Shown: positions 11,114 to 16,170 of the stretch, piece by piece | Layout: every line of letters starts with the position of its first letter | How positions within the stretch are numbered: position 1 is the stretch's first letter | NCBI GenBank assembly: GCA_964016885.1 | Contig: OZ024763.1 | Location: 8,370,001-8,434,000, forward strand | Length of the DNA stretch: 64,000 bases | Direction: 5' to 3' | Origin: Eledone cirrhosa | Taxonomy: Eukaryota | Notes under the pieces: model-generated | The model's input: the letters and a program-made list of their open reading frames with translations, nothing else | What the model was told of the DNA's origin: nothing | Database searches by the model: none | Program-made: the position numbers and the translations under genes

Positions 11114-11166
11114 ATTTTATTATACATATTTCAGAGGTACAACAGTACGTCCTCATCAGACAAAAT
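11114..11166 (-). ncRNA. Minimal type-I hammerhead ribozyme, family A (intact core)
   Basis: Minus strand: ATTTTGT CTGATGA GGA-C-GTAC-TGTT-GTAC-C-TCT GAAA TATGTAT A ATAAAAT. Confidence 0.75.
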
Positions 11167-12199
11167 ATAATACATGTTTAACTCTTTAATATATATATAT
11201 ATATATATATATGTATGATATATATATATATGTATGATATATATGTATGATATATATATATGTATGATATATATGTATGATATATATATATGTATGATAT
11301 ATATATGTATGATATATATATATATATGTATGATATATATGTATGATATATATATATGTATGATATATATGTATGATATATATATATGTATGATATATAT
11401 GTATGATATATATGTATGATATATATATATTTGTATATATATATATATATGTATATGTATGATATATATGTATGATATATATGTATGATATATATATATG
11501 ATATATATATATGATATATATATATGATATATATATATATGATATATATATATATGATATATATATATGATATATATATATGATATATATATATATGATA
11601 TATATATATATGATATATATATATATATGATATATATATATATATGATATATATATATATATGATATATATATATATATATATATATATATATATATATA
11701 TATATATATATCATACATATATATCGCCACACAGACCAAGTTTCATGTTACGTTGTTCAGCTAAAGGTGAGTGACGTGAGGCTTGGTGTAGCGTTCTGTG
11801 AAGTTTATTCGCCTTCAAATAAATTTGATATTTCTCCATAATGTTAGTATTAGATTCTCTCTCCTGTATCATACTTGCCTTGCTGCAGTTGCATATTCAC
11901 ACACACACACACACATGCACATGCACTCACACACGTGTGTGTAAGCATGCGTGAAGTCACATATGCATGTCTACATATATATATATGTGTGGGTGTGTGT
12001 GTATGTATATATATATGTGTGTGTATGTATATATATATGTGTGTGTGTATGTGTGTGTATATATATATATATGTGTGTGTGTATGTGTGTGTATATATAT
12101 AAGTATATGTGTGTGTATGTATATATATATGTGTGTGTGTGGGTATGTGTGTATGTATATATGTGTGTGTGTGTATATATGTGTATATATTTGTATATA

Positions 12200-12300
12200 T
12201 AGGGTGTCCTAAAAATGTATACACACTTCAACAGCATTCTAATAAATATTGCATGTACAGGTAATCAAAGTGTGTATACATTTTCGGGGGACATCCTGTA
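12200..12300. mobile_element. Mariner-like MITE
   Basis: TIRs TAGGGTGTCCTAAAAATGTATACACACTT / AAGTGTGTATACATTTTCGGGGGACATCCTGTA within (TA)n; second copy at 58388. Confidence 0.75.
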
Positions 12301-13707
12301 TATATATTTGTATATAATATATATATATACATATATATATATATATATTTTTTTTTTCATTTATATATATATATATATATATATATATATATATATATAT
12401 ATATATATATATATATATATCAGTATATAACACGCGTTTTATATCAGTTAGCAATGCGCGTGTCATTTGCCTCCATACCCAATTCATTTTTGCATGACGA
12501 GACATCCCATTACTCCACAATATTCTATTTCCGGTTTTATTATTATTATTATTATTATTATTATTATTATTATTATTATTGTTGTTGTTGTTGTTGTTCT
12601 TATTGTTGTTGTTCTTATTGTTTGCGTTGTTTCCTTTGTTGTTGTTGATGTCATTATTAATGTTAATGTTGATGTTGTTGTTATTGTTTCCGTTGTTCTT
12701 GCTGCTGTTGTTGTTGTTTGCTTTTCTTCTTCTTCTTCTTTCTCTGGGAGATACTAACGGTAATAGGATGATGAGGGTGATGATGATGATGATGATGATG
12801 ATTAAGACGATAAGGATGATGACAGTGATAACAACGATGAAGAGGGTGGATGGTGCTAGTGATGATGATGGAGATGATAGTGATGATGATGATGGTGGTG
12901 GTGGTGATGGTGCTGATAGTGATGGTGATGATGGGGATAATGGTGCTGATGGTGATAAGGATGATGATGGTGCTGATGGTGATGGTGGTGATGGTGATAA
13001 GGATGATGATGGTGGTGATTGTGATGGTGGTGATGATGATGATGTCATCAATCCAGCCTCAATGAAAGTCCATTGCTTTCCTTACCAATGTAATATAATT
13101 GAACACAGCCTCTCTCTCTCTCTCTCTCACTCTCTCCCAGTCACCCTCTCTCACTGTCTCTGTCACCCTCACTTTCTCTCTCGCTCTGTCACCCTCTCTT
13201 TCTCTCTCGCTCTGTCACCCTCTCTTTCATTCTCTCTCTCTATCTCTGTTTTTCTCTCTCCTTTTCCCTATATATATATATATATATATATATATATATA
13301 TATATATATATATATATATATATATACATATATATATATATATATATATATATATATATATATATATATATATATATATATATATATACATATATATATA
13401 TATATACATATACCTATCTCTATCTCTTTCTTTTTCTCCTTTCTCCCCTCTCGCTCTCCCTCTCTCTCTATATATACCTCTCCCTCTGTAGAATCTCTAA
13501 TTTAATTCCTATGGGAGCCATTCTATTCCCAGCTACACTATCACCCAGAGGCAGGTGTACCACAGTGACACCTCTTGGTATCCTCCCCCCTACAATTTGA
13601 CCCCTCCTCCCGGCCCCCTAAACAACAACAAGAACAACAACAACCAGAACTGGAATAATAATGTTGGTATACCATTCTGATATGGCGGTTTGTACATCAC
13701 AACCTTT

Positions 13708-15188
13708 CTATATGTATGTATGTATGTATGTATGTATGTATGTATGTATGTATATATGTATATATATATATGTGTATATGTATATATATATGTGTATATA
13801 TATATATATATATATGTATATGTATATATGTATATGTATATATATATGTATATATATATGTATATATATATATGTATATATATATATGTATATATATATG
13901 TATATATATGTATATATATATGTATATGTATATATATATATATATATGTATATGTATATATATATATATATGTATATGTATATATATATATGTATATATA
14001 TATATATATATGTATATATATATATATATGTATATATATATATATATGTATATATATATATATATGTATATATATATATATATATGTATATATATATATA
14101 TATGTATATATATATATATATATGTATATATATATATGTATATATATATATATATATGTATATATATATATATATATGTATATATATATATATATATGTA
14201 TATATATATATATATATGTATATATATATATATATATATGTATATATATATATATATATGTATATATATATATATATATATGTATATATATATATATATA
14301 TGTATATATATATATATATGTATATATATATATATATGTATATATGTATATATATGTATATATATGTATATATGTATATATATATATGTATTTATATGTA
14401 TATATATGTATATATGTATATATATATATGTATATATATGTATATATATGTATATATGTATATATATGTGTATATATGTATATATATGTATATATATGTA
14501 TATATATGTATATATGTATATATATGTATATATATATATATGTATATATATATATGTATATATATGTATATATATGTATATATGTATATATATGTATATA
14601 TGTATATATATGTATATATATGTATATATGTATATATATGTATATATGTATATATATGTATATGTATATATATATGTATATGTATATATATATGTATATA
14701 TATATGTATATATGTATATATATGTATATGTATATGTATATGTATATATATATGTATATATGTATGTATATATGCATATATATGTATATATGTATGTATA
14801 TATGTATATGTATATATGCATATATATGTATATATGTATGTATATATGCATATATATGTATATATGTATGTATATATGCATATATATGCATGTATATATG
14901 TATGTATATATGCATGTATATATGTATGTATATATGTATATATGTATGTATATATGTATATATATATGCATATATATGTATGTATGTATATATATATATG
15001 TATATATATGTATATATATGTATATATATGCATATATATGTATATATGTATGTATATATGTATATATATGCATATATATGTATATATGTAAGTATATATA
15101 TATGTATATATGTATATATATATATACACATTATATATATATATATATATATATAGAGAGAGAGAGAGAGAGAGAGAGAGAGAGAGAG
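13708..15188. repeat. Compound (TA)n/(TATG)n microsatellite ending in (GA)n
   Basis: Direct reading; source of the ~500-aa YIYI ORFs. Confidence 0.97.
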
Positions 15189-16106
15189 GTTGCACCTAAT
15201 ATAAGAGTGTTATCTCTAGTGTTATCATATCCCTGATATCTGTGAGATAAACTCGAAAAAAATGGGTGGCGTATATAGACATGTAAGCAAGGATGTGTAT
15301 ATATACACACACAAGCAACCTACACTTGCGTACAGACACATACACACACACCTGAATGTATGTATATGTACATGTTCACAAACACACAAACACACACACA
15401 TACATACATACATACATACATACATACATACATACATACATACATACATACATACATACATACATACATACAAGGAATATAAAAAAGGATTTGAAAAGCA
15501 TACACGTAGAAAAATAAAAAAGAATTGATATTAGCAAAGCCTGCTTTCTCTGTTTTGGATTGTCAAAACCTTTGTTATTAGGTTAAATTTTGTTTCGTTT
15601 TTTCGTTAAAACTCCTGCATGTTGATTCTCAACCACATTGTGTCTATGTATAGATATTAACACAAAATGAATATACACACATATACATATGTATATATAT
15701 ATATATATATATATATACACATATATATATATATATATATATATACATATGTATATATATATATATATATATATATATATATATATATACATATGTATAT
15801 ATATATATATACATATGTATATATATATATACACGTATATATACATATGTATATATATATACACGTATATATATATATATATATATATATAGAGAGAGAG
15901 AGAGAGAGAGAGAGAGAGAGAGGGGTTATATTTAATTTGTTGGGATTCAACAAGCTTAAGAATGTTATAACCTATATAAAGCACTCAAAAATTTCGGGGA
16001 GTAAATACATAATATATTAATAAATGGAAACTATCCAGGAAGCTCCAACCGTTAAGGTTGTCTTTTTTTCCGGGTATGTCAATATTTATTTATAAAACAA
16101 ATCTGC

Positions 16107-16170
16107 ATTTTATCTGATGAAAGCGCACCATAATTTGCCTTGATTGCCCTTGAAATATGTATAATAAAAT
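16107..16170 (+). ncRNA. Minimal type-I hammerhead ribozyme, family A (intact core)
   Basis: ATTTTAT CTGATGA AAG-C-GCA...TGC-C-CTT GAAA TATGTAT A ATAAAAT. Confidence 0.75.

Follow-up and report, generated by a model that had tools for sequence, protein, structure and literature searches.

The window analysed here is a stretch of 64,000 nucleotides from Eledone cirrhosa (contig OZ024763.1, positions 8,370,001 to 8,434,000). Three short repeat copies within it, at 11114-11166 (minus strand), 16107-16170 and 520-583 (both plus strand), carry hammerhead ribozyme motifs and are, judged by their sequence, 5'-truncated 3' ends (pseudo-long terminal repeats, pseudo-LTRs) of three different Hydra-clade Penelope-like elements (PLEs) that encode a reverse transcriptase (RT) and a putative GIY-YIG endonuclease. 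A first-pass annotation of the window had placed the three motifs at these positions, described their layout and recognised them as type I hammerheads of the Penelope-like type; in all this it was right. Its proposal that they form a probably non-autonomous family did not survive the tracing of the copies to elements with coding capacity.

A search for the pattern CUGANGA-N8-38-GAAA returned 15 matches in the window versus 0.95 +/- 0.97 in shuffled sequence, four of the 15 being overlapping parses at one A-rich site. The hammerhead core (CUGANGA, GAAA and UH) is present with its three helices, and the three copies share a single layout: a stem I of 7-8 bp, CUGANGA, stem II, GAA, an 8-nt palindrome, A17 and the complementary strand of stem I. 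The predicted scissile A17 falls at 11121 (minus), 16163 (plus) and 576 (plus). Position 2 of stem I varies among G.U, A-U and G-C, as annotated. The fourth position of stem II is C.C in all three copies. This mismatch had been described as lying 3 bp from the core, which does not apply to the 520-583 copy, where the first stem II pair is A.A and only two pairs precede the C.C. Since the 40 best genome matches of this copy are 100% identical to it over 156 nt, the A.A represents the state of a whole young subfamily rather than damage. In the 16107 copy, outer stem II differs from the commonest form by a private G-to-A change. Copies 16107-16170, 11114-11166 and 520-583 are the ends of subfamilies that we designate A16, A11 and A05, respectively.

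The parent elements were found in the 3.0-Gb genome, whose loci are designated by L-numbers. Each window copy gave about 1,000 first-look candidates, with best matches 95-100% identical. One A16 locus held an inverted piece reading GLYRDD, and a search with this piece led to RT frames. Fifteen extended A16 loci were taken from the 20 loci of the RT search, one of which was hammerhead-seeded. In all 15 the A16 hammerhead follows, on the same strand, a frame containing the RT motif YRDD, a linkage for which the first-pass annotation had proposed to look; the distance from the end of the open reading frame (ORF) to the hammerhead is 1252-1546 nt in 12 of 14 aligned loci. A further 40 loci were chosen for other hammerhead types; among these, A05 (L188), A11 (L186, L195, L196, L198 and L199), E35 (L187, L193 and L203) and E35b each run into an ORF of their own.

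A locus of a sister family (L167:1395-3791) contains a frame that runs unbroken for 799 codons; an inverted arm flanks it on the left, and the hammerhead and tail lie on its right. The motifs RW, DKT, YRDD, CxCX5C, CxxC and CxH are found in this frame, and the variants seen across element frames, RW(R/T), SDKT, CNCRxKxxC, CxLC and CKH/CLH, match the list for the Hydra clade (PMC8557442), including the lack of CCHH. The fold predicted for the L167 frame from a 44-sequence alignment had a confidence score (pLDDT) of 85.7, with TERT (3du5) as its best PDB match (E 1.5e-7); the fold predicted from the single sequence scored 33, and a PDB sequence search with the alignment of the element protein gave 0 matches. 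The GIY-YIG domain was assigned by eye from its motif pattern (YxxxC...YVGST/YFGST, R, H, E, N), and the C-terminal domain is confidently predicted. Hydra vulgaris and Octopus proteins were among the homologues, and Hydra-clade reference proteins were compared by eye. Assignment to the Naiad group was considered and rejected by comparison with PMC8557442, as the endonuclease-like domain is C-terminal, the RT motif is DKT and not DKA, and a hammerhead is present.

The elements have the order 5' untranslated region (UTR), RT, GIY-YIG, a 3' UTR of 1.3-1.5 kb, hammerhead, tail and (TA)n, and measure about 3.7-3.9 kb (3656-3662 nt for the E35b unit). Insertion into (TA)n and pseudo-LTRs with tandem and inverted arms are seen in genomic loci, where the annotated AUA cleavage site and (TA)n context are both present. 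The short copies differ in where they begin but share a fixed 3' end, as truncation would leave them. These data bear on the possibility that the motifs belong to a non-autonomous retrozyme or to a family resembling short interspersed elements, mobilised in trans. Most copies are short, numerous and devoid of an ORF, and no RT was found near motifs with ACUGC/GCAGU and other stem I sequences in 14 loci checked, so that some members may be non-autonomous. We nonetheless regard this explanation as very improbable: A16, A05, A11 and E35 extend unbroken through their 3' UTR into RT-GIY-YIG frames, the ends of the short copies point to truncation, and no short tandem monomer was seen for the cited subfamilies and E35. 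For these four it is already refuted. The copies in the window, listed below with their relatives, are dead, truncated by-products.

392..627, plus strand: truncated 3' end of A05 (3' UTR piece, hammerhead 520-583, short tail), followed by (TA)n; it matches the 3' end of the ORF-bearing locus L188 at 99.6% over 236 nt.
11065..11171, minus strand: truncated 3' end of A11; it contains hammerhead 11114-11166 (cut predicted after 11121) and is 100% identical over 107 nt to L077.
11175-11212: 38-nt inverted tail piece beside the A11 copy.
15921..16215, plus strand: two-armed insertion of A16 (the subfamily found downstream of the RT frame in 15/15 loci) between microsatellites; the inverted tail arm is 15921-16021, and the direct arm, 16030-16215, contains hammerhead 16107-16170 (cut predicted after 16163).
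16664..16842, plus strand: two-armed fragment of a related subfamily; the direct arm begins within the catalytic core and holds no complete ribozyme.
18877..19232, both strands: two-armed insertion; the minus arm (18877-19140) has core CUAAUGA, a natural G5A change, and an altered stem III (motif 19030-19095, minus strand), and the plus arm (19135-19232, plus strand) lacks C3-U4.
27288..27340, plus strand: 5'-truncated fragment with palindrome AUACGUAU, without CUGANGA.
35742..36148, minus strand: 3' end of E35 with intact hammerhead 35799-35868, a C.U mismatch and palindrome AUGCGCAU, predicted cut after 35806.
50065..50153, plus strand: tail-only fragment (inverted pseudo-LTR end) of A05.

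Beyond the cited copies, the window therefore holds one intact sister copy (35799-35868, minus strand) and broken copies at 16745 (plus), 19135 (plus) and 19030-19095 (minus). The E35 copy is antisense to the host nitric oxide synthase gene and lies between exons of this gene. The palindromes that the annotation had noted are present, although the copy at 27295, cited there among them, is the 5'-truncated fragment just listed. Comparison with the Rfam hammerhead families, to which the annotation had also pointed, gave no match in the window at gathering threshold and no hammerhead family at E <= 10 on 11070-11190. As Rfam also missed a textbook minimal motif at 21.4 kb, the scan is insensitive here; the E-value scan of 9000-22000 was dominated by microsatellite matches, as was the repeat search.

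Genome-wide, the hammerhead motif with stem II left free has 107,612 matches versus 193 in the reversed control. Counts at the fourth stem II position are 74,155 for C.C, 24,293 for C.U, 453 for C-G and 649 for G-C; thus, C.C or C.U (together C.Y) accounts for about 91% of copies and G-C/C-G for about 1%, and among the matches listed the paired forms occur singly, scattered over many subfamilies. To analyse covariation, 251 distinct motifs were grouped into 42 clusters at 88%, with 20 loci fetched as C-G left out; some single-member clusters are damaged copies. The annotation had claimed covariation from the window copies. Three copies alone are insufficient for this, but the 42 clusters do show it. 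Stem II positions 1 to 8 are paired in 35, 39, 41, 1, 36, 37, 34 and 36 of the 42 clusters, position 3 being U-A in 16, A-U in 14 and G-C in 10. Full compensatory swaps occur at stem II positions 2, 3 and 6 and in stem I. Most positions exceed all or nearly all of 2000 column shuffles (II.2, 3, 5, 6 and 8 and I.1 and I.4 exceed every one, II.1 does not), with the shuffles ignoring relatedness. The stem II register has no extra base between 9 and 10.1, which gives the pairing of the first three positions cited above; G10.1-C11.1 is found in 7 of the 42 clusters, and the base of stem II is A.A, U.U or G.A in 7.

The unpaired fourth position is kept across three lineages whose endonuclease pieces are only 44-58% identical. 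A C occupies 10.4 in 38 of 42 clusters, and no partner base was found for it. We take the C.Y mismatch to be a selected, base-specific structural feature and, given this base specificity, probably more than a generic weakening of the stem. The annotation's suspicion of a stem II variant is supported. Related elements from other animals were also collected at 77 metagenome loci, with a hammerhead called in 36 (three look spurious); among these 36 the fourth position is paired in 32 and C.C in none, and 34 have a GUH triplet whereas AUA does not occur.

Some features of the wider family were noted in passing. In the A16/A05 lineage (L001, L091 and others) stem I extends beyond an internal loop as a 12-bp helix, UAUUUAUAAAAC / GUUUUAUAAAUA; the extensions of A11 and E35 differ from it. 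Families with stem I ACUGC/GCAGU or ACAC/GUGU (L097, L175, L177, L181, L184, L026, L174 and L176) have the same palindrome and C.C. No RT was found in the flanks of the loci checked for these two families and for the UGUCAC family; the first two are possibly non-autonomous relatives.

The innermost pair of the 8-nt stem III palindrome cannot form inside one hairpin. The central position reads U-A in 19 clusters, U.G in 15, C-G in 8 and C.A in none, and genome-wide U.G outnumbers C.A by 33,538 to 834 in a search whose pattern fixed AT-RYRY-AT, so that the inner pairs alone are a free test. U.G and C.A are each one transition away from both U-A and C-G, and an excess of U.G is what would be expected if two motifs pair with each other. 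ADAR editing was considered as a cause of this excess and rejected, the singleton rate in 14 A16 copies being 0.063 per A for A>G versus 0.123 per T for T>C. Closing a 2-bp monomeric stem III costs 1.6-3.5 kcal/mol, and the self-duplex gains 2.2-10.5. The innermost palindrome pair is under selection, in keeping with the annotation's view that this stem III is suited to cleavage as a dimer. Dimer cleavage of PLE hammerheads has been published and occurs in vitro in related elements (PMC4209133; PMC6765202).

On these grounds, the pseudo-LTR hammerheads of these Hydra-clade PLE families quite probably act in pairs, joined through the palindrome, to release a unit-length RNA that is copied into (TA)n. 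A head-to-tail transcript would carry one hammerhead at each end; the two would pair through the 8-nt palindrome and cut slowly after AUA, and the RT and GIY-YIG protein of the element would copy the released RNA into (TA)n tracts. Re-ligation to a circle may intervene, or uncut multimers may serve as template. The most likely effect of the mismatch is that cutting stays slow or conditional. Of four triplets compared in the ELVd hammerhead, AUA was the slowest (PMC1636495), and slow, dimer-gated cutting is favoured by this behaviour in one viroid hammerhead and by the frequent loss of G10.1-C11.1. Cleavage, the dimer, the circular or multimeric template and the role of the mismatch are all read from sequence patterns and should be understood as proposals. 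A narrower version, in which C.Y mismatch, AUA and 8-nt palindrome define a lineage-specific subtype that gates cleavage to the double hammerhead, with the 3.7-kb RNA cut, circularised and copied round the circle, is possible but doubtful; if it were true, more than 100,000 genomic copies would record variants still able to transpose.

Several observations argue in the opposite direction. Pfam gave no GIY-YIG match, and there was no nuclease among the fold matches listed, the domain not having been searched alone. Copy counts and cluster shuffles disregard relatedness, and one abundant young subfamily carries A.A at the base of stem II. Unconstrained minimum free energy folds of short monomers lack the hammerhead for most window copies, and published PLE hammerheads cut weakly in vitro even as dimers (PMC4209133). 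Finally, none of 30 insertion 5' ends examined in the E35b subfamily lies exactly at the predicted cut.

E35b is informative with respect to the template. Its tail is joined directly to the 5' UTR, producing a permuted 3.66-kb unit. Thirty near-full-length loci with a 5' UTR comprise 18 with the whole upstream hammerhead, two that start inside it and 10 that start 3' of the cut. Four of the 20 loci reading across the cut site represent one insertion, and the 10 downstream starts are at scattered places. Such 5' ends fit circles or uncut multimers, and equally a motif that rarely cuts. The corresponding A16 tail-to-5' UTR junction pattern was found at one place in the genome. At G000:C6:38068880-38089520 (L277-L279), an insertion between TA tracts comprises a 1860-nt inverted arm plus five full-length units of 3.66 kb in tandem; six hammerheads lie in sense orientation, and all frames are broken. 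The units are 99.6-100% alike and their differences alternate from unit to unit. We had considered this array as proof of one-pass rolling-circle copying; this interpretation was dropped, as the alternation makes later DNA duplication, conversion or assembly error possible. The tandem and the junction agree with the published model, in which the RNA is cut, ligated and copied over more than one unit length, and with uncut multimers as templates, too.

The 5' ends of E35b, reading across the cut site, would also suit a fold that is retained as a binding or packaging signal for the element protein, with negligible cleavage in vivo and C.Y as a protein-recognition mark. The base specificity of C10.4, which goes beyond generic weakening, and the non-canonical pairs that 7 of the 42 clusters have at the base of stem II point the same way. 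We consider this unlikely, because selection acts on the catalytic core and on the innermost palindrome pair, as would follow directly from a double hammerhead, and the related PLE hammerheads mentioned above do cut as dimers in vitro. A further possibility is that the mismatch allows an upstream segment, GGUAUGUC, to pair with the 5' strand of stem II while the RNA is being transcribed, and so to turn the ribozyme off. In A05 this pairing reaches -11.6 kcal/mol (p 0.005 versus shuffled upstream sequence), and 14 of 46 representatives are at p <= 0.05. The other 32 fail, among them A16 (p 0.71) and the ACUGC/GCAGU family, which keep C.C all the same. The switch was thus rejected as a general explanation, and as the reason for the mismatch it is even less likely than the binding signal. 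Release of unit-length RNA by paired hammerheads remains the reading that we prefer.

Much of this system is already in print: the element class, the hammerhead, the dimer model, the (TA)n preference and a member from octopus, Hydra-1_Obim of Octopus bimaculoides (PMC8557442), whose hammerhead sequence differs from the Eledone motifs. The Hydra-clade PLEs of Craig et al. 2021 (PMC8557442) share with the present elements a C-terminal GIY-YIG (putative in the latter), RW(K), DKT, the CxCX5C linker, CxxC and CxH, as well as (TA)n insertion, a sense-strand type I hammerhead near the 3' end, inverted 5'-truncated arms and an often non-canonical first stem II pair. They are generally shorter than 3 kb, a tendency, whereas those described here reach 3.7-3.9 kb with the long 3' UTR. 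By eye, stem II is uninterrupted and position 16.2 is G in 26 of 26 Hydra rows of File S2 of that study, in contrast to the AUA, 8-nt palindrome and C.Y found here. With the metazoan PLE hammerheads of Cervera and de la Pena 2014 (PMC4209133) our motifs share the type I fold, pseudo-LTRs, a long helix II, a small palindromic helix III, a preponderance of solitary truncated copies, opposite-strand pairs 100-700 bp apart, and the proposal of dimer cleavage and a circular template. Copy numbers there are 2,000-9,000, versus the 107,612 counted here. The minimal type of that paper has G10.1-C11.1 and an extra base after 9, both mostly absent here; the label "minimal" given by the annotation consequently holds for the palindromic 15.2-16.2 and loop 3 and fails for the 8-nt stem III, G10.1-C11.1 and the extra base. 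A helix II bulge is reported for D. virilis in the same paper, and a conserved 1x1 pyrimidine mismatch is not mentioned in the part of its text considered.

Metazoan non-LTR retrozymes (PMC7229834; bioRxiv 10.64898/2026.07.22.740005) likewise have type I hammerheads with a weak helix III and dimer cleavage, and the 126,247 axolotl retrozyme motifs (PMC7229834) come close to our copy number. They are non-coding tandem units of 170-400 nt, whereas the motifs here belong to coding elements. The ELVd (+) hammerhead (PMC1636495) shares the natural AUA triplet and differs in being from a viroid and in having a stable monomer fold. Literature searches on hammerheads with such a mismatch and on hammerheads of octopus Penelope elements found no description of the mismatch, though Lunse et al. 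2017 or supplement file 1 of PMC4209133 may show something similar. The novelty is one of detail: the stem II mismatch, AUA as the predicted cleavage site and a palindrome of 8 nt. The elements are of a kind already known, and what they add is a variant and a test bed. Why PLEs keep hammerheads is an open question in the papers considered. Some 100,000 copies, with many young subfamilies that have coding partners, amount to a natural mutational scan, in which selection favours a pair available only to the dimer and disfavours pairing at one position of stem II. The dimer model and the new conserved mismatch thus become testable with short RNAs.

An ACUCC...GAGUGCU motif was noticed by eye in the tails of A16, A05, A11, E35 and the ACUGC/GCAGU family. 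It can fold into a hairpin that has a 3' bulge of UU or GU, and a similar copy opens the 5' UTR (for example, L167:4960-4990 and 1317-1340). It is a candidate protein-binding or promoter signal. At L013, a short piece lies between the two arms of an A16 insertion. It resembles the 3'-terminal part of a histone H3 coding sequence, which suggests template switching onto a host mRNA. In the window, 30225-30476 (minus strand) holds the decayed remains of a Hydra-like ORF that is more distantly related.

The window contains additional hammerheads and coding sequences. A second hammerhead family is represented at 21409-21454 and 63002-63047 (both minus strand), the copies being 90% alike over 81 nt. 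It fits the published minimal type, with the extra A after the core, the G-C base pair, stem III ACGU and stem I UCUU/AAGA. Hammerhead-like motifs of other families lie at 9314-9366 and 9883-9926 (both minus strand); the latter has a broken stem I and a relative in L026. Other features are:

25828-27180, ~29890-29980 and ~45640-45830, plus strand: exons of a nitric oxide synthase whose N-terminus carries a PDZ domain (Pfam matches: PDZ, E 3.7e-12; NO_synthase, E 1.2e-25).
36556-37275, minus strand: zf-RVT fragment resembling a long interspersed element (E 0.018).

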